In this document: positions 6,912-62,646 of the stretch, in pieces
Layout of the letters: each line of letters starts with the position of its first letter
Position numbering within the stretch: the stretch's first letter is position 1
Source: a virus
Lineage: Duplodnaviria > Caudoviricetes
Length of the DNA: 64,000 bases
Direction: 5' to 3' (one strand)
Virus record (IMG/VR): IMGVR_UViG_3300029288_000145
Coordinates: 1-64,000 of that record
Notes under the pieces: generated by a model
The model's database searches: none
What the model saw: only the letters and a program-made list of their open reading frames with translations
What the model was told of the DNA's origin: nothing
Position numbers and translations under genes: made by a program

Positions 6912-6956
6912 CAAAATTACAAATATGAGATTGTTTTTCCAAATTTATTTTAAAAT
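6912..6956 (-). promoter_or_regulatory. Promoter, extended class (ATTTTAAAATAAA-TTTG-G)
   Basis: ATTTTAAAATAAATTTGG, N20 spacer, TAATTTTG. Confidence 0.7.
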
Positions 6957-6970
6957 TGTTTTATGTGGTT

Positions 6971-7052
6971 ATTTTTAATTAGACTAAATAACGGGATGTT
7001 GGTCATAATCAGCTTTCTATATTTAGAAGGTGAACATACCAGCTAGTTATAG
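6971..7052 (+). repeat. attI-like recombination site, copy 1
   Basis: ATTTTTAATTAGACTAAATA..ATTTAGAAGGTGAACATACCAGCTAG|TT; gapless alignment with copies at 11557, 31023 (minus) and 45566 (minus). Confidence 0.75.
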
Positions 7053-8072
7053 CCAACCTTAAAAAACCTCGCAGCTTTCGACACAACCATTGGAAATGTC
7101 GAGTTCGCATAAGTCAAATAAAGAGGCTTGTTTGTATTCAGGCTTGTATTGGCTTTCATCAACTGCAACTTCAAAAGGTTGCTTCGCCATTTTTACAATA
7201 TCCCAAATACTTTTATTTTGTCTAAAGCAATTAATAGGCGGTTTCATTAATGGGTTGTGGCTTTTAGAGATAGGTATAAAAGCACTGTATTTTTGTTCCA
7301 TTTCAGCCCACCAGTTAATAGTTTCAGGAGTTTCATTTACTATTGTCATTAGCTTTCTAAATGATTTTTTAAAGCATAAATCACAATTCCCCTCGTATGT
7401 TTTAAGTTCCAAATCAAAAGGCTGTTCACTCCAAAATTTATTAATGTCATTTTTTCGGGTTGGAATATCAGAAACCAATGGATAAACAAACCTTTGTTTT
7501 TTCGCATCTGGCGCAACCCTATCAATTTCATCTATTCTAATCCCAATTGCAGTAAACCAATGTTTCCAGCCAATAGAACGGGCATAAGCCTGTATTGTGT
7601 ATTTTTTTAATTCTCGTGTGCAATGGGGGCTTTTTACACTTGGCATTCCGTGTTTAGCAATCATCGCTTCAAAAGGTTCACCGTTTCGGCTTGCTGTTTT
7701 GTAATCAACAATCTTGGCTCTAACTCCTTTTCTGTGTTCAGGATTGGTAATTGCTTCAACCCAAACACAATTAAAGCCAAAGTATTTATCGCACCGTTCA
7801 ACAAAATCCAATGTTTCATTTCTTTCTTTACCTGTATTGGCAAAAACAACAATAATATTGTATTTATATTTCCAATTGTCAATTATCCATTTAGTCATAA
7901 AAGCCGATGTCCTACCACCAGAAAATGAGATTAGTAACAAAGGCAGGCTATAACACGTGCTATATGCCAGTTGGGTTTTATCGGTATTTGAATATTTCTG
8001 CATCTAATTTAGTTTAAGTGTAATTTGATAGGGCGGTGCGCTGTAATCCCAACCGGACACATAGCACCATCG
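7047..8072 (+). mobile_element. Integron-like gene cassette 1 (1026 bp), cargo PAPS-reductase-family gene on the opposite strand
   Basis: Begins G|TTATAGCCAACCTT, ends with attC-like site whose inverse core AAGGCAGGCTATAAC is complementary at 13/15 positions. Confidence 0.7.
7059..8003 (-). CDS. Phosphoadenosine phosphosulfate (PAPS) reductase family protein
   Basis: SFSGGRTSAFM PP-loop, VFANTGKE, HCTRELK, GIRIDE, GNCDLCFKK, C-terminal CxxSCE. Confidence 0.85.
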   Translation of the reverse strand: MQKYSNTDKTQLAYSTCYSLPLLLISFSGGRTSAFMTKWIIDNWKYKYNIIVVFANTGKERNETLDFVERCDKYFGFNCVWVEAITNPEHRKGVRAKIVDYKTASRNGEPFEAMIAKHGMPSVKSPHCTRELKKYTIQAYARSIGWKHWFTAIGIRIDEIDRVAPDAKKQRFVYPLVSDIPTRKNDINKFWSEQPFDLELKTYEGNCDLCFKKSFRKLMTIVNETPETINWWAEMEQKYSAFIPISKSHNPLMKPPINCFRQNKSIWDIVKMAKQPFEVAVDESQYKPEYKQASLFDLCELDISNGCVESCEVF

Positions 8073-8078
8073 TTATTC
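7948..8078 (+). repeat. attC-like hairpin 1 (131 bp)
   Basis: CTATAAC-ac-GTGCTATATGCCAGTTGGG ... CCCAACCGGACACATAGCAC-catc-GTTATTC. Confidence 0.7.
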
Positions 8079-11507: not shown

Positions 11508-11550
11508 CAAAGGTAATACTTGTTAATAACTTTTCCAAATTTATTTTTAT
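11508..11550 (-). promoter_or_regulatory. Promoter, extended class
   Basis: AAAAATAAATTTGG, N20 spacer, TACCTTTG; 5 nt before ATG 11503. Confidence 0.7.
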
Positions 11551-11556
11551 TATACT

Positions 11557-11638
11557 ATTTTTAATTGGACTAAACAGAACCATATTATTGATTATCAGGA
11601 GATATTATTTAGAATGTGAACATACTAGCTAGTTACCT
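11557..11638 (+). repeat. attI-like recombination site, copy 2
   Basis: ATTTTTAATTGGACTAAACA..ATTTAGAATGTGAACATACTAGCTAG|TT; gapless with copy 1. Confidence 0.75.
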
Positions 11639-12355
11639 GCCATTTAAGAAAACAGCCTCACCGACTATCGGATGAACACAATTCCTTAATATTTGAACAG
11701 GGCAATGATTTTTACCGTAGTAAATAGTTTCTTCAAAATGAATGCCTAACCAATCCATCGTTGCTTTTTTTCCTTCCATATTAGCTTTGTTTATAAAGTT
11801 TTGGGGTTGCTCAACTTTTACCTGGTTAATTTTAAAGTTTGCCCAAAATAAATGTCTTCCAATTTCGGCAGTTGGTTCAATCAATGGTTTATAATATGGT
11901 TTTACATTTTCAACAACCCATTTGCCTTTAAAAAAGTGCTGTAAAAATATAATCACTTCATAAAGTTTAAAGTCTGGATAATCGGCTACTTTGTGCCTTG
12001 TAAATTTCATCATCTTGCTGTGTTTTTGGCACGGTGGGGAAATCCAAACGAAATCAAAGTTTTCATAGTTGTTTTTTAAATATTCGTAAGCATCGCCAGT
12101 AATTACCGTATCATTCGGGTAAAGCTTTTTATAAAGTGCTGCTATTTTAGGGTCATTTTCAACAGCCGTAACCTGGCAATCTTTCCAATTTTTGCGATTA
12201 CCGCCAACCCCGGCGCAAAGATTTAAAACACGAAAAACGGCAGGTAACACGCGGTCATACTCCATGCCGGGTGTCGTGGTTTGCCAAAGTTCCTGCTGTT
12301 TATTAAGTTTTGTCATAATTTGATAGTGTTTCGTTATTAATCCGGCACGTAGCAT
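11633..12355 (-). CDS. Short DNA cytosine-C5 methyltransferase
   Basis: VLNLCAGVGG (motif I), SPPCQ (catalytic PC), VVENV (motif VI); true start probably ATG 12316 or 12265. Confidence 0.85.
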   Translation of the reverse strand: MLRAGLITKHYQIMTKLNKQQELWQTTTPGMEYDRVLPAVFRVLNLCAGVGGNRKNWKDCQVTAVENDPKIAALYKKLYPNDTVITGDAYEYLKNNYENFDFVWISPPCQKHSKMMKFTRHKVADYPDFKLYEVIIFLQHFFKGKWVVENVKPYYKPLIEPTAEIGRHLFWANFKINQVKVEQPQNFINKANMEGKKATMDWLGIHFEETIYYGKNHCPVQILRNCVHPIVGEAVFLNGR

Positions 12356-12366
12356 ACCGCAATTCG
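11633..12366 (+). mobile_element. Integron-like gene cassette 2 (734 bp), cargo C5 DNA methyltransferase on the opposite strand
   Basis: Starts G|TTACCTGCCATTT; inverse core AAACGGCAGGTAAC complementary 13/14. Confidence 0.7.
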
Positions 12367-12372
12367 TTATTC
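12242..12372 (+). repeat. attC-like hairpin 2 (131 bp)
   Basis: AGGTAAC-ac-GCGGTcATACTCCATGCCGG ... CCGGCACGTAGCATACCGC-aattc-GTTATTC, one extrahelical base. Confidence 0.7.
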
Positions 12373-25419: not shown

Positions 25420-26880
25420 GGGCACCACTTACCCTCGTCTGCATTACGGTGGCAATATACTACGTTTTATGACCATGTTCGCAACCAATTCATCAGACGG
25501 TGTCTGGTATATCCAGACGAATCCGGGTACCGTGTCCTGATTAATCCTCCTATCTCGCTTTACCACGTCCTGTACGCCACGACATCGCACCCCTGAGTGG
25601 TACTTCTTAGCACAGTTCATATCATCGCCCCGTAGATCGTCTTAAAATCGCTCATATCTGTTCATTATTTATCCATGTTCGCTTTAAACGAACACCGCCC
25701 AGGAGTGAACACGCTCCATAGGTACCACAAACCGGTGCTGATCGCATTATTTTACCCCCATTTTGTCAGGTTTTTAACCCCATAAACTTGACTTTATACT
25801 AATTAAATGAAATTACTAACCCATTACCCCACCGGTGAACGAACCGCATTTAAACACTCTAAACACATATTTTTTGACTCAAACCGAGCTGTGATTTTTT
25901 TAGCTATTTTATACCGCTCGGTTTTGTACACGAAATCATAGGTACATATATCAGCCGAGGTTCAAAATAAAAATCCAAATTTGCTAACCCCACCGGCATG
26001 TAAATCAATAAGTTATGATGAGATACCAAACATATAAAAGTAACTCCCTGATTATCAATTAATTAAAAGCAAATAATCTGCATACACGACGTTCATTCAA
26101 TTAAAATTAGTTGCTTGATATTCAATTCATTCTGTCTTATTTAGAATCATTCTAAATATAGTAGCATGAATGACAATAACATACAGAGGCAATATAATTA
26201 TAATAAATAAATGATATGTTAGAAATTTCTAACATTTAGTAAAAAATCATTTCATAACTATATAGCATACAACGATATATAGTAATATTAAATAGATAAG
26301 TAATTAAGCAGGCTGTTTATGTATTGTATTGATATATAATACAATGCTAATATAATATATGTTATTTTATTTAATAGTTGATAGTGTCAACTAATTTTGT
26401 GCGTGAACAAATATAGTGCCAAACGATATAATTTTTGAATGTTTATTTTAAAATAAATTTGGTGATTTGCTTGCATTGGCTGGATAAATGTATTATCTTT
26501 GGTATATTATGAATGAGATAATGAAGGCAAACAGGACGTTTAACACAAATATTTAAATATAATGTCATGAATATCAAATCAATGTTTAAAACAAAAGGGG
26601 CGAATGATGCATTAACTGGTCAAAAAATTATGTCAGTAAGATATTTAGATGATAATATGACCAGAAAATTATATTTATCAGATGCTCCCTTAATCATTAC
26701 CTTATCAAATAATGCTTGACAAGCATTTATGGAATAGTTCCAAAACAACGGGAAAATACCGGAACATCTTTTTAAGCGAGTCTAAAAAAGAGACTGAACA
26801 AAAGATTAAATCAGGTATTTATAAACTTGTAAGCCTGAATTAAACATATTTGAAAAGCGAAACTAAATTTTAAATAACAC
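25420..26880. other. About 1.45-kb largely non-coding strand-switch region with several palindromes
   Basis: No convincing ORF; palindromes at 26138-26158 and 26216-26235; IHF-like WATCAAnnnnTTR matches near 26003 and 26052. Confidence 0.6.
26444..26501 (+). promoter_or_regulatory. Promoter for the rightward early-type cluster
   Basis: TATTTTAAAATAAATTTGG at 26444-26462, then CTTG-N20-TATCTTTG (motif about 12 bp further upstream than in other copies). Confidence 0.55.
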
Positions 26881-26896
26881 AATAAATATTATTATC

Positions 26897-27433
26897 ATGA
26901 AAATCGTTGAATTAAAACTTTATTCGTTTAACGAATTATCAGACGAGGCAAAACAAAAAGCATTATCTGATTATAACGGTGATTCAGAATATTTTTGGGG
27001 AGACGAGGCAATGGGTAGCTTGAAAAAATTCCTGGAACATTTCAATTGTGAATTAATTGACTGGTCATTGGATTTCCTGGAACCACACCGGAACAGTTAT
27101 AAAATTGATATTCCCGAATATATGCAGGAAAAAACATATGACGAATTGAAGGGATATATTGAAGGAATGGGGAAATATGACCCGGAAACATTAAAGGGTC
27201 TTGGCTCCTGTATGTTTACCGGCGTATGTTTCGATGAATCATTAGGCGATGGAGCTAGAAAAGAATATTACTCAGGCACCACAGGCATAAGCGACATTAT
27301 CCATGCCGGGATTTCAGAATGGGAAATTGATGTAAAAAAAGACTGTGAATACAATTACAGCGAGGAATGTTATGCCGAAACATGCGAATCAAACGAATAC
27401 TTATTCACTGAAGAAGGTCAATTATGGTCATAG
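26897..27433 (+). CDS. Acidic early-type phage protein
   Basis: LYSFNELSDEAKQKAL...CESNEYLFTEEG, a pattern common in phage early regions; function not recognised. Confidence 0.6.
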   Translation: MKIVELKLYSFNELSDEAKQKALSDYNGDSEYFWGDEAMGSLKKFLEHFNCELIDWSLDFLEPHRNSYKIDIPEYMQEKTYDELKGYIEGMGKYDPETLKGLGSCMFTGVCFDESLGDGARKEYYSGTTGISDIIHAGISEWEIDVKKDCEYNYSEECYAETCESNEYLFTEEGQLWS

Positions 27434-28699: not shown

Positions 28700-29683
28700 A
28701 TGGAAAAAATCAAAACGTACAAAGCATTTGACAAAGAGCTTAAATGCCGTGATTTCCAATACGAAATTGGAAAAGAATACAAGCATAAAGGAAAGGTGGA
28801 AATATGTTCATCCGGTTTTCATTCATGCATAAATCCCTTTGACTGCCTGAGTTATTACCCACTAATCGAAACACGATTTTGTGAATGTGAGGTATGGGGC
28901 AAGACTGACAAAAACAATGATGATAGTAAGGTGTCTAGCGAATTTATTCTGATTGTAAAGGAATTGTCGGAAAAAGAATTTAACCTCATTTGTGTAGATT
29001 TCTTAATAAAAGAATGTGAAGAAAAGCAGTCAGGAGACGACTCGCAGCAGTCACAGTCAGGATACGCCTCGAAGCAGTCACAGTCAGGATACCGCTCGCA
29101 GCAGTCACAGTCAGGAGACGACTCGCAGCAGTCACAGTCAGGAGACGACTCGCAGCAGTCACAGTCAGGAGACCGCTCGCAGCAGTCACAGTCAGGAGAC
29201 CACTCGAAGCAGTCACAGTCAGGATACCGCTCGAAGCAGTCACAGTCAGGATACGCCTCGAAGCAGTCACAGTCAGGATACCGCTCGCAGCAGTCACAGT
29301 CAGGAGACGACTCGCAGCAGTCACAGTCAGGAGACCGCTCGCAGCAGTCACAGTCAGGAGACCACTCGAAGCAGTCACAGTCAGGATACCGCTCGAAGCA
29401 GTCACAGTCAGGATACCGCTCGAAGCAGTCACAGTCAGGAGACGACTCGCAGCAGTGTTCTTGTGGTTATGATTCTGAAATAATTGCAACAGGAGAAAAT
29501 AATGTCGCTGCCGCAATTGGTGAAAAATCCAAAATTAAAGGCATTATCGGCACCTGGATAACACTGGCAGAATATGACAACGATTCAAAATGTATCTGTG
29601 TAAAATCGGCCATCATTGATGGTAAAAAACTTCTGCCCGATACATGGTACATTCTTAAAAACAAAAAATTCACTGCAATATGA
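28700..29683 (+). CDS. DUF7666-like protein with 9-aa tandem repeats
   Basis: YKAFDKELKCRDFQYEIGKEY..GFHSC.NPFD N-domain; C-terminal VKSAIIDGKKLLPDTWY. Confidence 0.75.
   Translation: MEKIKTYKAFDKELKCRDFQYEIGKEYKHKGKVEICSSGFHSCINPFDCLSYYPLIETRFCECEVWGKTDKNNDDSKVSSEFILIVKELSEKEFNLICVDFLIKECEEKQSGDDSQQSQSGYASKQSQSGYRSQQSQSGDDSQQSQSGDDSQQSQSGDRSQQSQSGDHSKQSQSGYRSKQSQSGYASKQSQSGYRSQQSQSGDDSQQSQSGDRSQQSQSGDHSKQSQSGYRSKQSQSGYRSKQSQSGDDSQQCSCGYDSEIIATGENNVAAAIGEKSKIKGIIGTWITLAEYDNDSKCICVKSAIIDGKKLLPDTWYILKNKKFTAI
29027..29458 (+). repeat. 16 x 27-bp coding tandem repeat QSG(D/Y)(D/A/R/H)S(Q/K)QS
   Basis: cagtcagga-NNNNNNtcg-NagcagtcA units counted from the sequence. Confidence 0.95.
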
Positions 29684-30639
29684 AAAAAACAATCACAAAA
29701 TCAGACATCTTATACAAGATGTTTCAGCTACAGGCAAAAAAAACGATTGAGGGAGAAAACCGGGCAATAGAATTTTGCCGGGCTTACTCAATCGAAACAG
29801 GGGTGCCATACCACCGGATAAAAAAGTATATGGAGACCTATACAGGTAGCCCTGAGAAATTCCCTGGCTGGGTGCAGAAAATGGAAAGAAAACGCCTGAT
29901 GAAGAGAAGGGCAGCAGCAAACACGGTCACTATTTACGAAAAGCATAAATAACAAAGCTATGAAACTGGAAGTATTTGAATTTTGGCATAACCAGAAAAT
30001 AAAAGAATTTATTGTGGAATATTCCAAGGTGCCTGTAAAAACAGATGGCCGGGAATGTGAGGTGTCTCCGGGAGTTTATCAGTCAGAGGTATCCATTGAT
30101 GGGATAAAAATGTACGTGAAACATGATGATAATTTTGCCCTAGTTGAGTTTTCCAAGCATGATATTACCGCCATGTCATGCGCCATGAAGGAAATTCAGG
30201 AGGCAAAGGAATTGCAGACAATGAGTCAGGAAGAACTTAATGACTTCTACTCATGAAACAGTTTGTTCCGATCACAACCATAAGCCGTGAAGCACGGTTT
30301 TTGGCGCATCCCTGGTGTTATATCCTGAAAGAAGGGTTTAATACTTATTTTGCCCTGGGAGTAAATTACCGAGAAACGGTTAAGGTTCCGTTTCTCAAAA
30401 AGCTAATTGATTCCGATATGATCATGCCGGGAGGTCATGACAAACATGGCCGGGAGATGTATGTTCGTGGTGTCACCAAGAAAAGCGAAGAGGAAATACG
30501 GGACAGTTCGCTGGCGTATGTTTTTCATCTGCTTTGCAAATATCCTACTATTGAAAAATGGGATTATCCGGGTGCATACTTGGCGGCAAAGAGTAGGCTG
30601 GCGGAGGTAGTAAACTCAATTAGACGTAATGGTGGCTAA
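29680..30639 (+). other. Three hypothetical CDS (29680..29952; 29960..30256; 30253..30639)
   Basis: Coupled ORFs; the TAA of the last lies in the crossover of attC-like 3. Confidence 0.6.
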
Positions 30640-30765
30640 CGGTACTTGTGTAAATTTCAGTGCCGTAAAATTAGTACAAACTTTAAATTGAAAATAAAAT
30701 GAAAAATCAAGTAGAAAATTATCAACAAAGCACTGCACAGGCATTGAATTTACACAATGTTAGCA
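30634..30765 (-). repeat. attC-like hairpin 3 (132 bp)
   Basis: Plus strand GGCTAAC-ggtac-TTGTGTAAATTtCAGTGCC ... GGCATTGAATTTACACAA-t-GTTAGCA. Confidence 0.7.
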
Positions 30766-30947
30766 GTAGTGCCAAAGGTGGACTTCGTAAAATTAAAGAT
30801 GCAGAGCAACCTTGCCTACATCCTGAACATAATCCACCGATGCACATTTATTTAACAGCAGGAACTTATGAATACACCTGCCCTTCTTGTGGCAAGGTTA
30901 CGACATTCACAGTGCCATTGATTACGTTTTAGAGGCATTACTGCTAA
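30640..30947 (-). mobile_element. Integron-like gene cassette 3 (308 bp)
   Basis: GTTAGCAGTAGTGCC (30759) versus GGCATTACTGCTAAC (30934-30948): complementary 14/15. Confidence 0.7.
30699..30932 (+). CDS. Small Cys/His metal-binding protein (cassette 3 cargo)
   Basis: CLHPEHNPPMH...YTCPSCG; start codon lies inside the attC-like loop. Confidence 0.65.
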   Translation: MKNQVENYQQSTAQALNLHNVSSSAKGGLRKIKDAEQPCLHPEHNPPMHIYLTAGTYEYTCPSCGKVTTFTVPLITF

Positions 30948-31023
30948 CTAGTTGGTATAGTCACCTTCTAAATATAGTTGCGTGAATATCAGCAATGTAG
31001 TGTTATTTAGTCTAATTAAAATT
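30942..31023 (-). repeat. attI-like recombination site, copy 3
   Basis: Minus strand AATTTTAATTAGACTAAATA..ATTTAGAAGGTGACTATACCAACTAG|TT; gapless with the other copies. Confidence 0.75.
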
Positions 31024-31366
31024 ACTTCTCAATAATGGTTATTTGATACAGGGCTTCAACGATCTTTTTTTTAATCCGAAACATAGCATAAGCGGAACCG
31101 GACTTCATTCCCTTAACATCCCAGACCTCCGTATGTCCATCGGCAAAAGTTATGAGGAAATCTGCCTTATAAAATCCACAGTTAATGTCATTTATTATTA
31201 TGTCATACCTAGGCTGGCAAATGTATTCCGTAATAACCTTGCCTCGTTTAAGCAGTTCAAGTTGTGCCGCATAGTTAGCTTCCTTCTTAGAGTCATAAAT
31301 ACGTCCATTAAATTCCGTCCGTTTGGCGTGGAACTTATTTCTTTTTGTAAAAGGATGAGAAGTCAT
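31022..31366 (-). CDS. DUF1064-like PD-(D/E)xK endonuclease
   Basis: NKFHAKRT..GRIYDSKKEA...YKADF...VWDVKG. Confidence 0.8.
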   Translation of the reverse strand: MTSHPFTKRNKFHAKRTEFNGRIYDSKKEANYAAQLELLKRGKVITEYICQPRYDIIINDINCGFYKADFLITFADGHTEVWDVKGMKSGSAYAMFRIKKKIVEALYQITIIEK

Positions 31367-34300
31367 AACTATTATCGTTTGGTGCGGTCATTTGTTGCAT
31401 GTATCTGTTATAAGCAGACTTGGCTCCCAGTAGTGCTGCCGATACTGCTGATACCAGGTCACAGTCCTTTAAATACTCAATACCCCTCATTCTCTTACAC
31501 TCTTCTAAAAAGTCATCATGCTTTATCCGGGCGCTGTGATATTCGATATAATCACGCACAGAATTAAACCTGTCCTGGTTGGCGGCGGCACCTGCCCAGA
31601 AACCGGGTTTTTCAACAATCTTTCCAGTAACATTATCAATGTCGTGTAATAAATATCCACCAAAGCCAAATTCAATAAAATCCCTCCAGAGTGTTTTGAT
31701 ATTGTTCTCCAAGTACATCATAGAGCCAAAGTACACACACATTTTTATCATGTCCCAGGAATATTCACTGCCGGCAGGTCGGTAACGATAGGTACATACG
31801 ATATTATATGTCTCCCATTCTGATACCTCTTTGTTGTCCGGGTCAATATTCATATCTCTTAGACGAAGTACGGCACCACCACCATCGGACATTCTTTCAC
31901 GAGATTCACGTAGCTGTGCCTCTGTCTTTGTTGAAAACTCAAAGGGGTCTCCACCGGCCACATACTTTCCGGGAAAGGCGGGATAGTAAATGCCATCTTT
32001 GAGAACTCTCTTACTCCTGATCTCTTCAGGTGGCATGTGTGAAAGCAAAAAGCGTCCATCGGGATTTTCTTTAAACACAACTTTGCCGGTTTGGTCTCCT
32101 CCCTCAAACTCGAAATTACCCCTTATCGGCTTATCCTTACCCGTCAGGCGATATAATTCTGCTAACTGGTCATTTATCTTGACTGTGTTAAATCCGATTG
32201 ATGTGGAGGCTCCTTGGAAGCACTCGGCATATGTTGTTGGAAAGAGTTCAACAAACCTGTGATATTGCCTCATGGCTGTCGGCGTGCCTTTTGATAGCAA
32301 TATCTGTCTCTGGGATGAAATAAAATCTTTGGCACCATAATTCTTTTTGATAAAGGCCGCCTGATCTGGAGTCGGATTGCTTATAACTGACAGTCCGTGC
32401 TTGTCTATAAACCCCTTCATACCGTCATAGGCAGGTATGAAAAGCGTTCTTAGTCCTGATGCTGTCTGCCCGGTAAGCTCGTTGATCTGCTCAAACCGGG
32501 ACTGTTCACACAAACGCCTGAAGTTGGATATTGTTACGGCATTAGCCTCCTCTACCGTTGTCGGGTGGATGCTGAAACCGACAATCTCATCTCCTATTGA
32601 CTGACATTCTTTGACGACATTCCACCGGTCAAATATGTCCTCTTGACTTTCCCTGGTGTTATGAACAACGGTGTAATCTGACAATAAAAACCTTCTATTT
32701 CCATCAATAATAAAACCATAATAGTTGCCAACACCCATTAATTCAACACGAAATCCAGTGTGTTTAGGGTTTCTGGAATTTTTGTTTTTATTTTCAATAA
32801 TTGGCATTTTTTTTCGTGGAATGAGACAATGTATTCTGTGCATATCAAATCCATAAATGCGTACTCGGTAAACGGGACAAGTATAAATTGGCTTGTTTGG
32901 CCTTTTTAGAGTGGCTATTTTTGCGTGAATAGTACTACCAAACCCACAACTAAGTGCCAAATCTTTTACCTGTTCAGCTAATATTGGTAATTTTAGGGTT
33001 ATTTCGTATACGCATTTATTTTTAGTGGTACATCTGTGACCATCCGTGTCTATTATGCCAGCCAATAATTTAAGTCGATTGTCTATACTATCAACTAAAT
33101 AATCTTTTATTATGTGTTTATTACGGATTAAATTATTACTACTTAAAAATCTTTGAATATAATTTATTTGGCGACCATGTGAAATAAATTTATATCCCTT
33201 ATAGTATCCAACATACTTTGTATAATTTGATATAAGATTCTCATTTAAACCAAGTTTGGTTGCAGCATCTTTTCTACTATGATACCGATTTATAAAATTA
33301 TTATTTCTATCATAACAATCAAATATAGCGGTTCTTTTCTTCGATAACCGATAAGTTATTCCATCTTCTTTTATAACCACCTTATATCCACCCTCTTTTG
33401 CGTAGTTATAAATGTAATTTATTACTTCTTTATCCACATTAGTTATGGCTGGTTCAGCAGAAGCACCATCTCCTAGCCATAAACCATACAAATATGGGTC
33501 TATTATGTGTTGTTTTTCAGGATAATCTACCCCAACACTATATAATACTAATCCACGCTTTTGATATTTTGACAATTTTAAATAATCTAATACGGTTAAT
33601 TCTATTATTTGTCCTTTTTTATATTTATAAGAATAAAATTGAGATTCATCACTTATCTTACATACGAGAATATGATTACTATTACACACCCAAGGGTCGC
33701 CTTTATTTGGTATTATCTTATATAGATCGTCCTGTCCACATACGGTAGATAATACATTTCGTTCTATTGAATCATCTCCCATAAGCAAATCGCCAGGAAG
33801 AATGTCTTGAACCATTTTAACGTCTCCATTATACATTCTTATAGGCGTATCCTTACCAAAACAGTTTCCTTCTTCATCACTCAGTATGTATTTTAGCTTT
33901 TTACCGTTATAATAAGACTTGTCAGAGGTCTGGGCGTAGTCGAATTTTGTTTTAAGTTCCTTCTTTTTATACAGGATAATCTTACCGTCCTTATTTCGTT
34001 CTGCCGGGGCGTTGCAGCTTATATTTTCCTTGGGATTGGTAGAACTATCCACCATTGGCTTAAAGTAAAACGGTATCTTCTGAAAGGCCGGAACAAGTTT
34101 ATCGGAAAATTGTGTCTTGGCATTGGCAGAGGTGTAAGATTGTAGCCCTATAAGAGCTGCTATAGACCGGGTGCCGATCTCCAGACCTACAGATATTGAC
34201 TTGTGCGTGGCACCATCCCTCCTGTGCTTGGGATAACAGAAGCCATAACATATCAACCTGCCGTAATCTTTAAGTTTTACGTCTCCATTATCATCTACAG

Positions 34301-34856
34301 CAACTTTTTTTGGCCGTCCCTTGTCGTCCCATTCGGAATATACGGGTGCTTTTGTTGTTGTGGCACAATCCCTGGCAAAGAGGAACCACCGTCTGTCCCT
34401 ATCCCTGTATTCGGCGGCACCTATATCCAGGTTGTAAACGGCTAAATACCAGTAATGCCAGCCATCCAGAAATGTTGGCTTGCCGTTATTAAAAAACCAG
34501 TATCCGTATAGCCTGTAATGCCATTGACGTTTTATCCATAATATCTCATCCTTATAATATTTCTGCCGGGCTTGCAGTTCGTTCCACACATCATCGGCAA
34601 AGGTATGTTTGTCAATAAGTTTGAGTATCTTTTTTGGTGTCGGTGGAATACGCCAGTATTGTTCATCACAGGGTTCGCCAAATCCATCTATAAGATGCCA
34701 TACAGGAGGTTCCGGCAGGTTTATACGCTGGGCGGTTAAGTCCGGGTCATTGTCATTAATGTAAAAATGGGTGTCGGCATCCTTGTAGGTAATGAGAATA
34801 TCCGGCTTTATAAGGGGTGAACTCTTATAATATTCAAGTGCCTGTAGTCTCTTCAT
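31335..34856 (-). CDS. terL: Terminase large subunit interrupted by an intein
   Basis: KHRRDG Walker A-like, YILSDEEG Walker B, C-terminal RNase-H-like GGDP/SDGG/ENN; 771 aa after removing the intein. Confidence 0.85.
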   Translation of the reverse strand: MKRLQALEYYKSSPLIKPDILITYKDADTHFYINDNDPDLTAQRINLPEPPVWHLIDGFGEPCDEQYWRIPPTPKKILKLIDKHTFADDVWNELQARQKYYKDEILWIKRQWHYRLYGYWFFNNGKPTFLDGWHYWYLAVYNLDIGAAEYRDRDRRWFLFARDCATTTKAPVYSEWDDKGRPKKVAVDDNGDVKLKDYGRLICYGFCYPKHRRDGATHKSISVGLEIGTRSIAALIGLQSYTSANAKTQFSDKLVPAFQKIPFYFKPMVDSSTNPKENISCNAPAERNKDGKIILYKKKELKTKFDYAQTSDKSYYNGKKLKYILSDEEGNCFGKDTPIRMYNGDVKMVQDILPGDLLMGDDSIERNVLSTVCGQDDLYKIIPNKGDPWVCNSNHILVCKISDESQFYSYKYKKGQIIELTVLDYLKLSKYQKRGLVLYSVGVDYPEKQHIIDPYLYGLWLGDGASAEPAITNVDKEVINYIYNYAKEGGYKVVIKEDGITYRLSKKRTAIFDCYDRNNNFINRYHSRKDAATKLGLNENLISNYTKYVGYYKGYKFISHGRQINYIQRFLSSNNLIRNKHIIKDYLVDSIDNRLKLLAGIIDTDGHRCTTKNKCVYEITLKLPILAEQVKDLALSCGFGSTIHAKIATLKRPNKPIYTCPVYRVRIYGFDMHRIHCLIPRKKMPIIENKNKNSRNPKHTGFRVELMGVGNYYGFIIDGNRRFLLSDYTVVHNTRESQEDIFDRWNVVKECQSIGDEIVGFSIHPTTVEEANAVTISNFRRLCEQSRFEQINELTGQTASGLRTLFIPAYDGMKGFIDKHGLSVISNPTPDQAAFIKKNYGAKDFISSQRQILLSKGTPTAMRQYHRFVELFPTTYAECFQGASTSIGFNTVKINDQLAELYRLTGKDKPIRGNFEFEGGDQTGKVVFKENPDGRFLLSHMPPEEIRSKRVLKDGIYYPAFPGKYVAGGDPFEFSTKTEAQLRESRERMSDGGGAVLRLRDMNIDPDNKEVSEWETYNIVCTYRYRPAGSEYSWDMIKMCVYFGSMMYLENNIKTLWRDFIEFGFGGYLLHDIDNVTGKIVEKPGFWAGAAANQDRFNSVRDYIEYHSARIKHDDFLEECKRMRGIEYLKDCDLVSAVSAALLGAKSAYNRYMQQMTAPNDNSYDFSSFYKKK
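32658..33863 (-). mobile_element. Intein (402 aa) with LAGLIDADG homing endonuclease
   Basis: Block A CFGKDTPIRMYNG, blocks YGLWLGDG and LAGIIDTDG, terminal VVHN followed by Thr; visibly more AT-rich than its flanks. Confidence 0.9.
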
Positions 34857-37461: not shown

Positions 37462-38050
37462 ATGTTAAGCCAAGAGTTCATAAATGATTGTTTTGTACGG
37501 GATGGCGAACCGTATCCGTGTCGTGGTGATATATATGTTGAATACGAAGTAAAACATTCCGTTCCAAGTATAGTATCATATGACATTACTTATATAAATG
37601 AAGAGTCGGATACACTTGAATTTCCAAGGGTGAATGATATTATCCTGCAACTGGGCAAATCTCGCAGAATAGTGTCGGCCACATACGACATTGATACAAA
37701 AACCCTCATATTGAACTTTAATGAGAAAATATAAGGAGTTGTTTAAGAAGATTGAGGCCGAACCTCATCGTGCATTTACGTATATAATGTCAATATTTGA
37801 CGGTATATACAATGATATGATGGAAGCCTGTGGCCGGGAGGAGAATCCAAATGCAGTCATGGAAATCGTAAATATGCACAATAAGAAATACAAAAGAATC
37901 TCAGTGGCAATAAACAAACATATTGAACAACGCTATGGTATAAAGAATTTACTCCGTAGTGAGGCGTTCCTGGACACTATAAAGTCCAATATTTTAATGG
38001 ACAAACAAGCGTTCCATGTGTATAACTGCTACTGGGGATTATCGAACTAA
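37462..38050 (+). other. Two hypothetical CDS (37462..37734; 37721..38050)
   Basis: Preceded by a TATATTTG -7 box near 37445-37452. Confidence 0.55.
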
Positions 38051-38051
38051 T

Positions 38052-38804
38052 ATGGAAGATCAAAAGAAGTATGTAGGGTACATCCGTGTATCAACAAAAA
38101 AACAGGGTGACAGTGGTGCCGGACTTGAAAGCCAGGAGGCTATTATTAAGGCTAAGGCCGGGGATAACCTGGTGAAAATATTTCGAGAGATCGAATCCAC
38201 ACGCAAGAGCAACAAGCGGTTTGAATTTTACAAGGCACTCAATATGTGTGTTGAAAACGGCTATGTACTTTGCATAGCCAAGATTGACCGTGCTATACGT
38301 GATATGGACTTGCTTATGTCTCTGGAGAAGGCGGTATCTGCCGGCAACCTCGAATTTTTTATCTGCAACCGACCCTGGGCAGATAAATATACTATCAGAA
38401 ATGACGTGAATAATGCCGAGCAGGAACGCCAGTGGATTTCTGAACGTACCAAGGCCGGGCTTGCTGTGGTTAAACTCAGGGGAACTAAAACCGGAAAGCC
38501 ATATATGCCTCCGAGGGGATTTCGTGAGGACAGAGCACGTCTTGAACGGGCTATTATTGCCAGCAGGGAGGCTAAGACAATTAAGAGACTGTGCCATCCG
38601 GAAATGATCAAGAGCCGTGCATTTATGATGGAACTACATAACTCCGGAAAGAGTGGGTGGGCTATTGCCAATGAACTTAATAAGAATGGGTTTAAAACCT
38701 CCACCGGCGGCCAGTGGCGACAGGGTTCTGTCTATACCACACTACAATTACCCTTTGATGAGGGTATTGTAGAAAAATATAGGGACGTTTACCAATGGCT
38801 ATAA
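38052..38804 (+). CDS. Small serine recombinase (resolvase/invertase type) with C-terminal HTH
   Basis: YIRVSTKKQ..SG.GLESQ, AKIDR, ISERTKAGL, IANELNKNGFKT..GGQW; likely start 38052. Confidence 0.9.
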   Translation: MEDQKKYVGYIRVSTKKQGDSGAGLESQEAIIKAKAGDNLVKIFREIESTRKSNKRFEFYKALNMCVENGYVLCIAKIDRAIRDMDLLMSLEKAVSAGNLEFFICNRPWADKYTIRNDVNNAEQERQWISERTKAGLAVVKLRGTKTGKPYMPPRGFREDRARLERAIIASREAKTIKRLCHPEMIKSRAFMMELHNSGKSGWAIANELNKNGFKTSTGGQWRQGSVYTTLQLPFDEGIVEKYRDVYQWL

Positions 38805-43549: not shown

Positions 43550-44704
43550 TTATTGTGCTGCTCTTCCCGTTGAAATGTAATGGTTTAACCTTGCTTCTTC
43601 TTTTTCAGCAGGGGTAAGTTCTTTTTCGCCCTCGTCCTTTTTAACAGCACTCGGAGGGGCACTAGGATTGTAATATTTTTTCGTTGTCTCCTCAACGGTA
43701 TCCTTGTAAACCTTTTCTAAGGCTGTGGCAATGATAGTGTTGAAGTTACGTGTAATGTAAAGATTTTTTGCGAAGTTGTTTAACAACTGAATATTGTCTT
43801 TTGTGGGTTTTAGCTCGTTCTGAACGGCATAGTTGGCCACGAGTGACAGTATCTCCTTGTTTTCCTTTTCCTCTATCGGTATGTCATAACTCACTTCCAG
43901 GTCGTTCTGCTCGTCAATCTGGAACTTTGTTGAACCGGCAAAGGTTTTAAAGGCGGATTCTACCTCAGTTTTAAACGGGGCTGACCAATCTTTCTTTAGG
44001 TTGTCAATATCAGTTTCACGCTGCTTGCTGACATCCTCAATCTTGGGTTTTTCAATCCCTTCAAATCTTTTCATTAACTTCTTATACTCTGTCTTGGCAT
44101 CCAACTCGAATTGCAGGGAGTCACGCTTGTACTCCTTGCTGTCGGTGTCAGGCTCATCATCGAACAAAAAGGGATACTTTACTTTAATGTATTCCTCTGC
44201 CTTGTCCTTAAATTCAGGATTCTCTAACGTAAGTCCGAGTTTCATGATTGCAAGCGAGTCTGGTTCTCCTAGTGCGAGTTTCTTGTATAAATCGTACTGA
44301 TCGGGGGTCTCTTTCTTAATGACCGCCAGTTTGTAGAGAACCTCATCCTCAAAAGGATTGAAGGCTTTTGCTTTTTCCAATTCAGAGGTGAGGCTTTCCC
44401 TGGCCTGTCGCAAGCCATTGTACTCTTTCTCTAAATCTTCTAATGATTTTATATTATCGCCAAATCTGGAATAATCAACTTGTTCCGGGACGGCAGGTGT
44501 CTCCGGTGGTTTAGGTGGTTCTGCATCCGTTATAGGATTTTTTACCTCCGGTTCTGTCGTAGGAGGGGGTGGGGGTGGTTCGGGCTTCTGCCCTGGTTCA
44601 TAAAATTCAGTACCTTCAGGATAACCCATTTTGAATAGGTCTTGCTTTCCAAGAAATTCCTCTGGAATTTCCACACTCATTTTTTCTGTATTTGTTTCTG
44701 CCAT
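43550..44704 (-). CDS. Capsid scaffolding-type protein
   Basis: Acidic, Pro-rich N-terminus (PEPPPPPPT), coiled coils; immediately upstream of the capsid gene. Confidence 0.6.
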   Translation of the reverse strand: MAETNTEKMSVEIPEEFLGKQDLFKMGYPEGTEFYEPGQKPEPPPPPPTTEPEVKNPITDAEPPKPPETPAVPEQVDYSRFGDNIKSLEDLEKEYNGLRQARESLTSELEKAKAFNPFEDEVLYKLAVIKKETPDQYDLYKKLALGEPDSLAIMKLGLTLENPEFKDKAEEYIKVKYPFLFDDEPDTDSKEYKRDSLQFELDAKTEYKKLMKRFEGIEKPKIEDVSKQRETDIDNLKKDWSAPFKTEVESAFKTFAGSTKFQIDEQNDLEVSYDIPIEEKENKEILSLVANYAVQNELKPTKDNIQLLNNFAKNLYITRNFNTIIATALEKVYKDTVEETTKKYYNPSAPPSAVKKDEGEKELTPAEKEEARLNHYISTGRAAQ

Positions 44705-45062: not shown

Positions 45063-45153
45063 ACATAACGGTTGAGGCTAAAAGCAGTTGCCTTGAATAC
45101 TGCTTGAAATTACGCACAGACTATCTAGCAATTGCTTTTAGCCTGTGTTATAA
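45063..45153 (-). repeat. attC-like hairpin 4 (91 bp)
   Basis: Plus strand ACATAAC-ggttg-AGGCTAAAAGCAGTTGC ... GCAATTGCTTTTAGCCT-gt-GTTATAA. Confidence 0.7.
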
Positions 45154-45490
45154 ACTGTAAAAATTATGGGCGAATATGCAGATATGGCAATAGAAAGTGG
45201 TTTGTCAAATTATATTGACTTTAAAACCCATAGCGGAATTTATGAGAATGATGATTATTTAGACGAGTGGGAGGGTGAAGACATACCATTCATTCGTGCT
45301 GAAAAGTGGGATAGTTTTGGATTCCTTGAAATAAAAAGAGAAACAAAAAAGGCTTGGTTACTCATAATGAATGGTAAGGCTGAGCGTTGGTTTCCAAAAA
45401 AGCATTGTAAGATTAAAGGCAATATAATTTTACTTCCAATATGGCTACGCAATAAAATGGCAGGATGGGAATAATTTTTATTGTTTATAA
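45069..45490 (-). mobile_element. Integron-like gene cassette 4 (422 bp), cargo ORF 45166..45474
   Basis: GTTATAAACTGTAAAAATT (45147) versus AATTTTTATTGTTTATAAC (45473-45491): complementary 17/19. Confidence 0.7.
45166..45474 (+). CDS. Hypothetical protein (cassette 4 cargo)
   Basis: 102 aa, MGEYADMAIE...ETKKAWLL...WFPKKHC..LPIWL. Confidence 0.65.
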   Translation: MGEYADMAIESGLSNYIDFKTHSGIYENDDYLDEWEGEDIPFIRAEKWDSFGFLEIKRETKKAWLLIMNGKAERWFPKKHCKIKGNIILLPIWLRNKMAGWE

Positions 45491-45566
45491 CTAGCTGGTA
45501 TGTTCACATTCTAAATAGTCTCTACTGATAATCAACAACATCCCACTATTTAGTCTAATTAAAAAT
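45485..45566 (-). repeat. attI-like recombination site, copy 4
   Basis: Minus strand ATTTTTAATTAGACTAAATA..ATTTAGAATGTGAACATACCAGCTAG|TT. Confidence 0.75.
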
Positions 45567-45637
45567 AACGTATTATTTGAACAGAGAGGGGATGCCAACT
45601 TAATGACACCCCCTCGCCAGATTAAGTTATTTACAGC

Positions 45638-46936: not shown

Positions 46937-49900
46937 TTACATTACCATAAAGAAGTTATGATTTGTTGCTGGTGGCGATGGTGAAGCTGATATTGACAAT
47001 GACGGGCTACTTGATAATGATGTCGATGGTGAGTGTGATATTGAGGAACTTATACTCGTACTGAGTGAGGCAGATACCGAACTCGATGGCGACAGACTGA
47101 TGCTTGAACTTACAGAACTTGACGGTGATAGACTGATACTTTGACTTATAGAACTAGATACAGAACTACTTGGCGATAATGATATACTGGTCGATGGAGA
47201 GGCACTGATGCTTATAGAGATACTAGTGGAAGGTGATAACGAAATAGATTCGCTTATACTTGTACTCGGCGAGACACTTGCCGATATAGACGTACTCAGG
47301 CTTGATGAAATAGATAATGATGGAGATAGAGATAGAGATGTAGATATTGAACTAGACGGGCTTACCGATGATGAAGGACTACTAGACGGTGAACTTGATA
47401 TACTTGTAGAATGGGAACCCGAAAACGATTCAGATATACTTTCCGATGGTGATACGCTTGATGATAATGAATGACTTATGCTTTCAGAAATAGAGGATGA
47501 TGGTGAACTACTTGGTGATGAACTTGGTGATAATGATGGTGATGAACTTACACTCGTGCTTACAGACAATGATGGAGATAGGGATATAGATTCACTAGCT
47601 GAACTAGATGGTGATGTTGATACAGATTTTGACGGACTTATACTTGGTGAACTACTGATGCTTACGGATGGTGATGTCGATGGCGATACACTTCCCGAAA
47701 TACTACTTGATACAGACAGGCTTATTGACCCAGAGGGTGAACTGCTCGGACTTAACGATACCGATTCAGATGGACTAACTGATATTGAACTGGAAATTGA
47801 TAATGATGGCGATAGGCTGATACTTGATGAGGGCGATAACGATATGGATAATGAAGGACTTAATGATATTGAACCGGATGGTGAACTGGAAGGGCTGGAT
47901 GATACCGACCCACTTGGACTTGTACTTATTGATGTACTTACACTTGACGATGGTGACCTGGATACACTCGAACTTGGCGAGGTTGATGGTGATACTGAAC
48001 TTGATAGTGAACTACTGGGTGATTCTGATGGTGATGCACTGATGCTGGTACTTATACTTGTACTAGGAGATGTTGAGGCCGAACTGCTTATGGAACCAGA
48101 GGGACTTAATGACGGCGAACTAGATACCGATAGTGACGGGCTTAGGCTGATGGAGGAACTTATGGATAGGGATGGTGATAAACTTATCGAACTTGATATT
48201 GACCTGGACGGTGATAATGACACCGAGGAACTTACTGAACTACTTGGACTAAGTGATGGAGAAGTGCTTAAACTATGTGAAACCGAACTGGATATTGATA
48301 GCGATGGAGATAACGATACGCTTGACGACAATGATGTGGATGGACTCAGTGATACCGAACTTGATACCGAACTACTTATGGATAACGAAGGGCTTAACGA
48401 AATACTACTCGATATTGACCGGGAGGGTGACGATGATATACTTGAACTTATTGACGTTGAAGGTGACGAACTTATTGACCTGGACGCCGATGAGGAAGGA
48501 CTGACCGATATTGACGATGATGGTGATACAGATATTGATGACGAGGGACTTACTGATGTAGATGGAGAAGATAGAATAATTCCCCAGAAATTTACCTTTA
48601 CAGTGGTGGTGGCCGGAACACTTAAAGATGCAGAAGGACTGCTAGATAAGGATGATGACAATGAAGAACTGGCGGAACTGCTGACGGAACTACTGGCGGA
48701 ACTGCTGGGTGATGAAGATACAGAACTCGATATTGATAGGGACGGACTTAAACTTATACTTGTACTGGGTGACAGACTTGGTGATGTTGATGGACTGGCT
48801 GAACTTGATGGCGAAGAACTTACAGAGCTTGATATAGATGTTGAGTGTGATCCTGAAAACGATTCCGATATGCTTGATGAAGGTGACACGCTACTTGACG
48901 GTGAACTACTTACAGAACTAGATAAAGATGTACTCGGCGAACTACTTTCAGACGTACTCACAGAACTTGATATACTTGTTGACGGAGATATGCTTTGTGA
49001 TGGAGATAGACTTGGACTGGATGATAGTGAAGTTGATGGTGAGTTGGATACAGACGTGCTTACACTCTCGCTTGGTGACGATGATAGGGAAGAACTTATA
49101 CTCGTACTGGGAGATACAGAACTCGACCTGGACGAACTTGGACTGCTGGATATTGACGTGGATGGCGATGTTGAAATTGATGATGACAAACTTCGTGACG
49201 GCGAATGTGATCTTGATGAACTCACCGATGTTGAAGGAGAACTGCTTACACTTATTGACGGTGAAGTGGAAACGGAGGATGACACACTTATACTTGGCGA
49301 CAGACTGATACTTGTCGATGGTGATGTTGATGGTGAAACGCTGCTTGACACAGAACTACTCGGCGATGAACTTATTGACCGGGATGGTGACAAGCTGGGA
49401 CTGGACGATACTGATTCTGATGGACTAGATGATACAGAACTACTTATTGATGTGGAAGGACTGACAGAAGATGATAATGAGGTGCTTACAGAGGATGATA
49501 CAGATTCACTCTGGGAAGAGCTGGGACTGGATGACACACTCCTACTTGGACTTAACGATATAGATAATGATGGAGACAGGCTTGGTGAACTCGAAATTGA
49601 TGAACTTGGACTTAATGAAATAGAACTGCTGATACTTAATGACGGCGACAATGACACTGAACTTGATATACTACTTGATATTGAGCTACTAATACTGGTC
49701 GATGGTGAGGCTGATATTGAAGAACTCACACTTGTACTTGGTGAAACCGAACTGGATACAGAAGAACTTGGTGAAGAACTCAGTGAACTACTTGGTGACA
49801 ACGATACCGATGAGGATAATGAGGTACTTACAGAGGACGATAATGACCGGGACACTGACGTTGATGGCGACACCGAACTCGACACAGACGTACTCGGTGA

Positions 49901-61140: not shown

Positions 61141-62646
61141 TTAACCTGCACCTGATGGACTGGTTGATAAGGATGTTGATACTGAGGATGATATACTTGT
61201 TGATGGACTAAATGAAACCGAACTTGATACAGAGGTAGATTCACTGCTTGATATTGATGTCGATGGGCTTACAGATGAGGATGGACTGCTGGATATACTT
61301 GTGGATGGCGATATTGATATGGAAGTAGAAAGACTTGTTGATATTGAAGTCGATGGACTTGTAGATGGTGATGTGGATATACTGGTTGAAGGACTTGTAG
61401 AAATTGATGTGGAGGGACTGATAGATATTGATGTCGATATGCTGGTAGATGGACTATTTGATATAGATGTTGAAGGACTGAGGGAGATTGATGTGGACGG
61501 TGATGTTGATGGACTGGATGATACCGAAGTTGAAAGACTTGATGATATTGAGGTTGAGGGGCTGATAGAACTGGATAAAGAACTCGATATACTGCGTGAC
61601 GGGGAACTTGACCTACTTAGCGATGGCGATGTTGATATAGAAGTACTTGGTGATATTGATACACTGCTCGACAAACTGCGTGATGGTGAAGTTGATGGAC
61701 TTAATGACGGTGATGTTGATACTGATGTCGATGGACTCAATGACGAGGATATACTTGACGACACACTTATTGACGGCGATGTTGATATTGAGGTCGAGGG
61801 TGATATTGAAACGCTACTGGAAACACTTGTCGATGGTGAACTGGATACACTGGTCGATGGGGAAGTACTGATACTTGTCGACACCGATGTTGATACCGAA
61901 CTGGATACACTGGTTGATGCAGAACTTGATATTGAACTGGAAGGACTGGTTGATATACTGCTTGATATTGACAACGAAGGGCTGACAGATAATGATGGGC
62001 TACTGGATACCGATGTAGACGGACTGTGTGATATTGAACTGGATATACTTGTTGAGGGTGAAAATGCGTCCCTGTGTGTAACCTGCCAGATGTTTGCAAC
62101 AACATTTATGGCTCTTTCCATTACGGTGCCGGCAGCCGTCCAGCTTTCCCGGTAGTCACCATTTGACAACGTGCCATTTACGGTGTAGTATATGTAATCA
62201 CCGTCAACATACGTGTTCCCGTGTGGGTTTGATGCGGCGATTATCTTGGCAAGTAATTGTGTAGTATTCAGGTCAATAGACATGAGGCACTGACCTAATT
62301 TGGTATCATTGTATGTAAGCAATGACATTGTTGAATTAACCGGCATTGCTTTGAAATAAATTATTTCATCACAACTTATGATATTCAATGCGTTTACCAA
62401 TTCACCACCCTTGGTAAGTACAGGAAGTTCAACTCTTGTTCCTGGGACAAACTCATCGACCATAGCCAATAAGCTGGCATATGTTTCGGTTGTAATGTAT
62501 TTGAAGGTCAGAAAGGCTTCCTGGTATTCAAATTGACGGGTACTCCCCTTGTCTCTGATGTTTGACATACGACCCACATTGAAATACTTAGTCTCGCTGT
62601 GTGCTGTATTGTTCTTTTTTGTGGTGGTTAAATAGGCGAACTGCAT
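61141..62646 (-). CDS. Protein with about 195-aa N-domain and about 305-aa (Ser-X)n tail
   Basis: Ser at alternate positions from about 62062 to 61147; first gene after the promoter at 62662. Confidence 0.8.
   Translation of the reverse strand: MQFAYLTTTKKNNTAHSETKYFNVGRMSNIRDKGSTRQFEYQEAFLTFKYITTETYASLLAMVDEFVPGTRVELPVLTKGGELVNALNIISCDEIIYFKAMPVNSTMSLLTYNDTKLGQCLMSIDLNTTQLLAKIIAASNPHGNTYVDGDYIYYTVNGTLSNGDYRESWTAAGTVMERAINVVANIWQVTHRDAFSPSTSISSSISHSPSTSVSSSPSLSVSPSLSISSSISTSPSSSISSSASTSVSSSVSTSVSTSISTSPSTSVSSSPSTSVSSSVSISPSTSISTSPSISVSSSISSSLSPSTSVSTSPSLSPSTSPSRSLSSSVSISPSTSISTSPSLSRSSSPSRSISSSLSSSISPSTSISSSLSTSVSSSPSTSPSTSISLSPSTSISNSPSTSISTSISISPSTSISTSPSTSISTSPSTSPSTSISTSLSTSISISPSTSISSSPSSSVSPSTSISSSESTSVSSSVSFSPSTSISSSVSTSLSTSPSGAG

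Follow-up and report, generated by a model that had tools for sequence, protein, structure and literature searches.

Integrons are the classic gene-capture machines, and their viral counterparts are known only as a few predicted attC sites. Short recombination sites are also used by Xer/dif exploiters, such as the CTX phage with its folded single-strand attP and the pdif modules of Acinetobacter plasmids, in which the host recombinase acts in trans. In these systems, a folded hairpin can present a duplex-like site, and modules are bounded by short sites. Polaribacter phage P12002L is among the phages with predicted attC sites (Qi et al. 2023, PMC9892861), and P12002L_attC1 was the one site not recombined by IntI1 in the assay of that study (PMC9892861). 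This failure may point to an enzyme other than IntI1. In T4-type phages, conserved intergenic motifs that flank accessory genes were named PeSLs, and modular gene shuffling was proposed for them (PMC2839356, PMC4122927).

The DNA analyzed here, referred to as the window, comprises positions 1 to 64,000 of IMG/VR virus record IMGVR_UViG_3300029288_000145 (Duplodnaviria; Caudoviricetes), i.e., the initial 64 kb of a linear contig of 76,930 bp. Completeness of the contig was 66% (CheckV). A tailed-phage gene set was present, including a primase/helicase, a DnaD-like loader, a YqaJ-like recombinase domain, a 1173-aa terminase, and a CHAP lysin. Eight promoters with a Bacteroidota signature point to a Bacteroidota host. 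Relatives of the phage were detected neither by megablast against phage records nor by comparison of primase/helicase loci in IMG/VR; the closest known phage match was 41% identical. Homologues of the metallophosphatase were numerous and 60% identical, but were located in unrelated contexts. For a 384-aa protein of the structural module (43550-44704, minus strand), a word-based search of 5.8 billion clustered proteins gave no homologue. The large subunit of the terminase (31335-34856, minus strand) is unusually long, and matches to terminases begin only near residue 316; a 114-aa Holliday-junction-resolvase-like ORF (31022-31366) follows directly. A 327-aa protein (28700-29683, plus strand) consists in part of about 20 tandem 9-residue repeats (SQQSQSGDD / SKQSQSGYR), which are encoded by a 27-bp DNA repeat at 28946-29564. 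Very large proteins of degenerate short repeats are encoded at 46937-51541, 51541-53370, and 61141-62646 (-). Their repeat families are rich in GAT/GGT/GAA on the plus strand, and they had been labelled Ser-X proteins with glycosyltransferases as neighbours in the initial annotation.

Four sites that align without a gap had been reported for this DNA, and this alignment was reproduced on realignment. The conserved unit comprises 80 nt, read in the direction of the neighbouring gene. Copy 1 is located at 6970-7049 (minus strand) with its TAAC core at 7046-7049 on the gene-sense strand, and copy 2 at 11556-11635 (minus strand), where the TAAC core includes the stop codon of the cassette ORF. Copy 3 (30945-31024, plus strand) abuts with its outer end the stop of the convergent gene at 31022-31366 (minus strand). 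Copy 4 (45488-45567, plus strand) is followed by a G+C-rich hairpin at approximately 45585-45615. Pairwise identity among the four copies was 58-68 of 80 positions (72-85%). A profile built from these copies was run against the whole 76,930-bp contig and gave exactly four matches (E-values from 4.5e-24 to 8.7e-22); the next match on the contig reached only an E-value of 0.13. The outer limit of similarity is sharp, and copies 1 and 4 terminate in ATAAC.

The invariant blocks of the element are TAACTAG, TTCTAAATA, TTTAGTC, and AATTAAAA. Its 28 variable columns fall into 13 runs versus 18.5 expected (P=0.006), in agreement with the earlier statement that free spacers separate fixed blocks. The proposed inverted pair CTAAATA/TATTTAG with a spacer of 29 nt was present in all four copies, with one G.T pair in copy 2. 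The proposed central palindrome TGATWATCA stood in part: it is exact in copies 2 and 4, reduced to TGA-N3-TCA in copy 3, and broken in one arm in copy 1. The consensus fold of the 80-nt element is very weak (-1.7 to -2.4 kcal/mol), and covariation is absent. The sole consensus stem, of 7 A/T-rich pairs with a 29-nt loop, accounts for -1.7 kcal/mol. No match in the element was obtained in an Rfam search, in which a tRNA-Met was the only match found. A search for intrinsic terminators (G+C-rich hairpin plus U tract) gave no terminator-like match inside the element.

A different accessory ORF runs towards each copy, and each copy starts at the TAAC core directly after this ORF. Cassette 1 (7050-8075, minus strand, 1026 nt) has a hairpin at 7951-8075 and an ORF at 7059-8003 for a PAPS-reductase-like protein; its arm after GTTA (7940-7954) pairs with 7046-7060. 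Cassette 2 (11636-12369, minus strand, 734 nt) has a hairpin at 12245-12369, an ORF at 11633-12355 for a short C5 DNA-methyltransferase-like protein, and an arm at 12235-12248 that pairs with 11632-11645. The C5-methyltransferase-like protein has only 240 aa. FxGxG, PCQ, and ENV are present, the target-recognition half is seemingly missing, and the first ca. 40 residues are encoded by the hairpin. Cassette 3 (30637-30944, plus strand, 308 nt) has a hairpin at 30637-30762 and an ORF at 30699-30932 for a 77-aa protein with a zinc-ribbon-like motif; here, the arm at 30759-30773 pairs with 30934-30948. In cassette 4 (45066-45487, plus strand, 422 nt), the hairpin is located at 45066-45150, the ORF at 45166-45474 codes for 102 aa with no assigned function, and the arm at 45147-45163 pairs with 45475-45491. 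G+C content of the cassettes was 35-39% versus 39.8% for the genome, a difference within one standard deviation and thus uninformative.

An imperfect hairpin lies upstream of each cassette ORF, with lengths of 125, 125, 126, and 85 nt in cassettes 1 to 4. The hairpins open with TAAC, end with GTTA, and carry the ORF start codon inside the loop. They are the four best TAAC...GTTA hairpins of the genome, each located 308-1026 nt from its copy of the element. At three of the four loci, the TAA of the opening TAAC is the stop codon of the preceding resident gene. Spacers are asymmetric, with 4-6 nt on the 5' side of the gene-sense strand versus 1-3 nt on the other side. Of the classical attC boxes (RYYYAAC/GTTRRRY), only AAC/GTT(A) is kept. 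Starting from the GTTA of the hairpin, 14-17 nt are the reverse complement of the nucleotides ending at the TAAC of the element, and this complement differs from cassette to cassette. Beyond the GTTA/TAAC core, 5-6 nt per cassette are perfectly matched, which for all four cassettes is expected by chance with a probability of about 4^-22. At position 11 of the complement, G faces T in all four cassettes, as a G.T wobble on the gene-sense strand.

The rebuilt circular junctions form a single long hairpin, in which an outer stem is followed by an asymmetric internal loop and then by an inner stem with its loop. Compared with the integrated state, this hairpin gained 8-10 kcal/mol in folding stability in the four cassettes, and in each of them folding was better in the gene-sense strand than in the antisense strand. 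(N)TAAC is all that the two junctions of any one cassette share, so that the crossover would lie within TAAC. On the gene side, the junctions have the motif TGGTGG-N1-2-TAAC in common; copy 1 is closer to copy 2, and copy 3 to copy 4. Because the first bases of each cassette complement the inverse core of its own hairpin, the cassette ends are interpreted as the footprint of circular cassettes inserted by site-specific recombination.

The same cassette rules were found in two further IMG/VR records (here G001 and G002), in P12002L, and in Flavobacterium phage tooticki6-1. The hairpins of P12002L (about 120 nt) agree with the present ones in their core, in the asymmetry of the spacers with respect to the gene direction, and in having a cassette-specific complement. 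P12002L_attC1, as given by its published primer sequence (PMC9892861), reads TAAC, 6 nt, GGCTAAACGG ... CCGTTTTAGCC, 2 nt, TGTTA; the cassette 4 hairpin is arranged in this way, too, and has some of the arm sequence in common with it. Among published sites, P12002L_attC1 is the most similar one. A pattern derived from the P12002L/cassette-4 hairpin type matched seven IMG/VR loci, and the complement rule was true in three of them. The two most complete records of these three, inspected at full length, have two adjacent hairpins in one case versus five hairpins at several places in the other. The hairpins of G001 and G002 include some of 125 nt, the wobble at position 11 is likewise present in them, and position 11 is also affected in the complements of tooticki6-1.

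Over its final 23 nt, cassette 4 is identical to a cassette end in G002, with the identity breaking off precisely at TAAC|. Different cassettes therefore have the outer stem of the site in common. Beyond TAAC|, another hairpin follows in G002 and the 80-bp element follows here. The match (45465-45491 of the window versus approximately 82843-82865 of G002) covers stop codon, 3' UTR, and core; the ORFs and the phages are otherwise unrelated. In phage tooticki6-1, about ten cassettes following these rules form an array. The last of them adjoins non-hairpin sequence at its 3' end in gene sense, and there the array stops. Matches of 98.6-100% to this region in about 40 related cultured phages do not continue past that point. 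The phages tooticki, filifjonk, and lillamy share one sequence as far as ...TGTAG|TTAT, after which their cassettes differ. In tooticki6-1 this is the stretch 1560-1760, with identity to TGTAG|TTAT upstream of a 65-aa gene, and the phages compared belong to two genera. The break is a clear-cut natural case of cassette turnover at the terminal site in cultured Flavobacterium phages that have no tyrosine recombinase. The terminal duplex site in this hairpin-cassette family thus behaves like attI. The cassettes beside the 80-bp sites were shown to belong to the hairpin-cassette family of Bacteroidota phages.

On balance, and with moderate confidence, the four 80-bp copies are regarded as fixed, non-cassette, attI-like terminal docking sites for the four hairpin-bearing cassettes. 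The TAAC/GTTA end of the element is a recombination junction, as four cassettes with their own hairpins and complements of 14-17 nt abut the same sequence, and the element is taken to be a reused target because the cassettes next to this one sequence are different. The site begins exactly at the recombination junction at all four loci. The 80-bp copies occupy the same position as the terminal site of the family, and both end in TAG|TTA. In its first ca. 20 nt (TAAC, 6 nt, GTATGTTCAC), the site is similar to the family hairpins in the layout of spacer and arm; the likeness to the L and R boxes of attI is one of layout only (TAAC-N6-GTAT arm). The term attI-like, used in the initial annotation, is supported in part and can be kept for the function, as four cassettes abut the same CTAG|TTA end, but not in the sense of a classical integron: the contig (66% complete) has no tyrosine recombinase, the four sites are dispersed, and the cassettes are backwards. 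From the four occupied junctions only, we infer that the site is used as a target. No empty copy of the 80-bp site was found, and no relative of the phage was found either. The occupation of all copies and the sharp outer boundary would be equally expected of a unit moving together with the cassette. Further observations speak against docking sites: the only recombinase found on the contig is a serine recombinase about 7 kb away, the sequence after the cassette ends in other phages bears no likeness to the 80-bp site, and internal motifs of the element recur at 26.1 kb without a cassette and are perhaps unrelated to recombination.

Eight copies of one promoter of the Bacteroidota -33/-7 type were found, consisting of TTTTAAAATAAATTTGG and, after about 20 nt, TAnnTTTG. 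The signature is TTTG with TAnnTTTG about 20 nt on, behind a common A/T-rich upstream TTTTAAAATAAA stretch. These early promoters, at 6947(-), 11543(-), 18502(-), 22177(-), 25406(-), 26454(+), 36945(+), and 44797(+), delimit the early transcription units. All four sites are located at the 3' end of an early transcription unit with a strong early promoter, and for this reason expression of an inserted cassette by read-through is predicted. The element was present at all four cassettes versus four of the seven operon ends whose ends are seen. Because the three other unit ends carry neither cassette nor element, the element goes with cassettes and not with operon ends. One early promoter lies directly downstream of copy 1 (6925-6960, minus strand) and another downstream of copy 2 (11515-11555, minus strand), where the distance from TTTG to the site is 10 nt shorter than for copy 1. 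Promoters abutting copies 1 and 2 had been compared to the promoter of intI; they do abut the sites, but are ordinary early promoters of the next operon and not of the intI type.

The region 25600-26900 comprises 1.3 kb between divergent early promoters and contains no ORF of at least 60 aa. G+C content is higher in its left part, while the centre is rich in A/T and contains several palindromes, one of them TATTTAGAA-TCA-TTCTAAATA; no Rfam match was obtained. It may be a control region or a replication origin. A motif cluster within this non-coding region (26041-26175) contains CTGATTATCA, TAATTAAAA, TGATATTCA, and TATTTAGAA-TCA-TTCTAAATATAG, and no cassette. The stretch at 26.03-26.18 kb was the strongest outlier genome-wide, with 24 8-mers per 150 bp in common with the element versus a mean of 2.0 (sd 2.2). 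Based on the conservation pattern and on this recurrence, the internal blocks TTCTAAATA, TGAWWWTCA, TATTTAG, and TAATTAAAA are considered putative sites of accessory or regulatory proteins. The recurrence at 26.1 kb suggests that an operator role of these blocks would fit equally well.

At the pattern stringencies used, no copy of the element was detected elsewhere. In IMG/VR, three patterns gave 43 loose matches in coding sequence, which were attributed to chance. The JGI metagenomes gave two chance matches, and the 185,579 species genomes of GTDB, searched with two patterns, gave another two. An origin of the site as a copy of a host dif site gained no support, since the core plus right arm was absent from the 185,579 species genomes. 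No recombinase gene adjoins any copy, and the neighbours are ordinary phage genes. No match to PF00589 (tyrosine recombinase) was obtained anywhere on the 76.9-kb contig, which is 66% complete. Neither tyrosine nor serine recombinases were found in five other hairpin-bearing phage records and two cultured phages. The missing tyrosine recombinase is no objection here, because complete cassette-bearing phages encode none either. As no tyrosine recombinase was found in the contig, the two complete cultured phages, and the five IMG/VR records, the recombining enzyme probably acts in trans. An IS200/IS605-type mechanism was rejected: a Y1 HUH transposase is absent from the contig, and the variability of the hairpins also argues against it.

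The cassette would enter as a circle, with the outer stem of 14-17 nt, the asymmetric internal loop, and the inner stem folded in the gene-sense strand. Strands would be exchanged within the core at TAA|C, which reads G|TTA on the opposite strand. The first ca. 20 nt of the site would offer, as duplex, the arm-spacer-core layout of the 5' half of the hairpin. The enzyme supplied in trans would be encoded by the host or on the missing third of the genome, and would most likely be a tyrosine recombinase. The remaining internal blocks may bind the accessory or regulatory proteins mentioned above.

Among the other readings, a serious though unlikely one is that the element is a degenerate or derived hairpin site (an ORF-less unit, or what is left of the attC-like site of an adjacent cassette) which is carried or copied with the cassettes and would not be a dedicated duplex target. 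Its beginning, TAAC-N6-GTATGTTCAC, compares with the 5' arms TAAC-N6-GCTATGTG, CGGTATGC, GCATACAC, and CGCTATAC of the family. TAACTAG at the start can pair with CTAATTA near the end, around the CTAAATA/TATTTAG stem, and such pairing gives the family topology with the long spacer on the same side. The sharp outer boundary, the ATAAC ends of copies 1 and 4, and the occupation of all four copies agree with this view, as does the usual presence of another hairpin after a cassette end in the arrays of other phages. However, the predicted fold is very weak and shows no covariation, the 3' side is devoid of GTTA, and the base after TAAC is T in the element and G in 11 of 11 family hairpins examined. 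Invariant blocks with free spacers would also be unexpected for a decaying relic. We rate somewhat lower the view that the element is mainly cis-regulatory (an operator cluster, an insulator, or a protein-dependent terminator) and that cassettes accumulate there because insertions are harmless. The location of all copies at 3' ends of early transcription units would be explained in this way. Two copies are followed at a short distance by the next early promoter, and the two spacings differ by 10 nt, i.e., one helical turn; the control region at 26.03-26.18 kb is the strongest outlier for words in common with the element, and fixed blocks with free spacers suggest protein contacts. Nevertheless, three other operon ends are without the element while every cassette has it, and no terminator-like hairpin with a U tract is present. 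The exact start of the element at the recombination core at four of four loci would be left unexplained.

Small serine recombinases such as Sin and beta act at sites that comprise several subsites over about 80-90 bp, the crossover being located at one end. A serine recombinase of 262 aa is encoded at 38016-38804 (plus strand; Pfam Resolvase, 1.7e-16), with a Resolvase domain and the start of a 'Recombinase' domain, and it is the only site-specific recombinase found on the contig. The possibility that the element is a res-like or att-like site of this enzyme is nevertheless very small. The gene adjoins no copy and is about 7 kb away from the nearest one, and on the cassette side the core is not flanked by dyad-symmetric sequence. 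In the cassette sites, structure is kept but not sequence, which indicates a folded single strand as substrate and not a duplex; five other hairpin-bearing phage records are without a serine recombinase. The enzyme is about 40% identical to a family of proteins of about 225 aa, and its homologues are located in defence islands with no link to cassettes. Hardly any weight is given to an action of element and hairpins as RNA, either as 3'-UTR or as processing signals, with the long-range complement closing the ORF in an RNA stem. The orientation follows transcription throughout, the wobble at position 11 would be G.U on the sense strand, and start codons are located in hairpin loops, as such a function would imply. 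Yet the 80-nt element has neither a stable or covarying fold nor an Rfam match, and homology between related phages breaks exactly at G|TTA, which is a signature of DNA recombination.

Returning to terminal docking sites, a wider proposal can be put forward tentatively and with considerable doubt. According to it, a docking module would have been multiplied to the 3' ends of four early operons, composed of an attI equivalent and putative protein sites of the control-region type, and these operon ends would serve as expression slots loaded in trans by a host recombinase. If true, the phage would possess an integron counterpart that has no integrase, is distributed over multiple sites, and receives hairpin-tagged genes from the host or from other phages. 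Four independent junctions with one 80-bp partner provide a rare, internally replicated view of the non-hairpin (attI-type) partner. The predicted crossover is pinned to four bases, and a defined duplex substrate for finding the recombinase is available. If the sites are true targets, accessory genes such as those for DNA-modification enzymes would be placed at several pre-set, well-expressed positions, and a route for rapid exchange of anti-defence genes would be given.

Compared to integrons, the similarities concern the architecture. Like attI of IntI systems, e.g., attI1 of class 1 integrons, the element is a non-hairpin site ending in G|TT(A) with cassettes inserted beside it. Each cassette has an imperfect hairpin with AAC/GTT cores, the cassette start is complementary to the inverse core of its own hairpin, and the site is conserved while the cassettes differ. 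In contrast to integrons, the phage encodes neither IntI nor any tyrosine recombinase and has no Pc-type promoter, and four dispersed sites with one cassette each are present instead of one site with an array. The phage cassettes are read from the upstream operon towards the site. Relative to integron cassettes, their genes are reversed: the hairpin is located 5', and its loop includes the start codon. The outer stem comprises 14-17 bp with a fixed G.T wobble instead of an R box of 7 bp, and of the GTTRRRY consensus only GTTA is kept. Unlike in Xer/dif systems, no dif-like 11-6-11 site could be demonstrated in the element.

The phage attC sites and CALINs of Qi et al. 2023 (PMC9892861) are similar in their DNA methyltransferase cargo and in the lack of an integrase in the phage; that paper describes hairpin sites only, and no conserved docking site in multiple copies. 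The closest likeness in position is to the end of the array in Muminvirus and Lillamyvirus phages (tooticki6-1, filifjonk9-1, lillamy9-1), which also have no tyrosine recombinase. There, a non-hairpin TAG|TTA is located at the gene-sense 3' end of the last cassette. This terminal site is simply the upstream region of the next gene, has no sequence likeness to the 80-bp element beyond TAG|TTA, and is present once per genome, at the end of a ten-cassette array. The PeSLs have in common with the present loci the conserved intergenic motifs next to accessory genes, but are promoter-plus-terminator motifs acting through homologous recombination (PMC2839356, PMC4122927). The junctions described here are base-exact, with cassette-specific complements and hairpins that are not conserved in sequence. 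The present phage thus combines terminal sites that are dispersed and occur in multiple copies with backward, hairpin-first cassettes, in the absence of a recombinase in cis.
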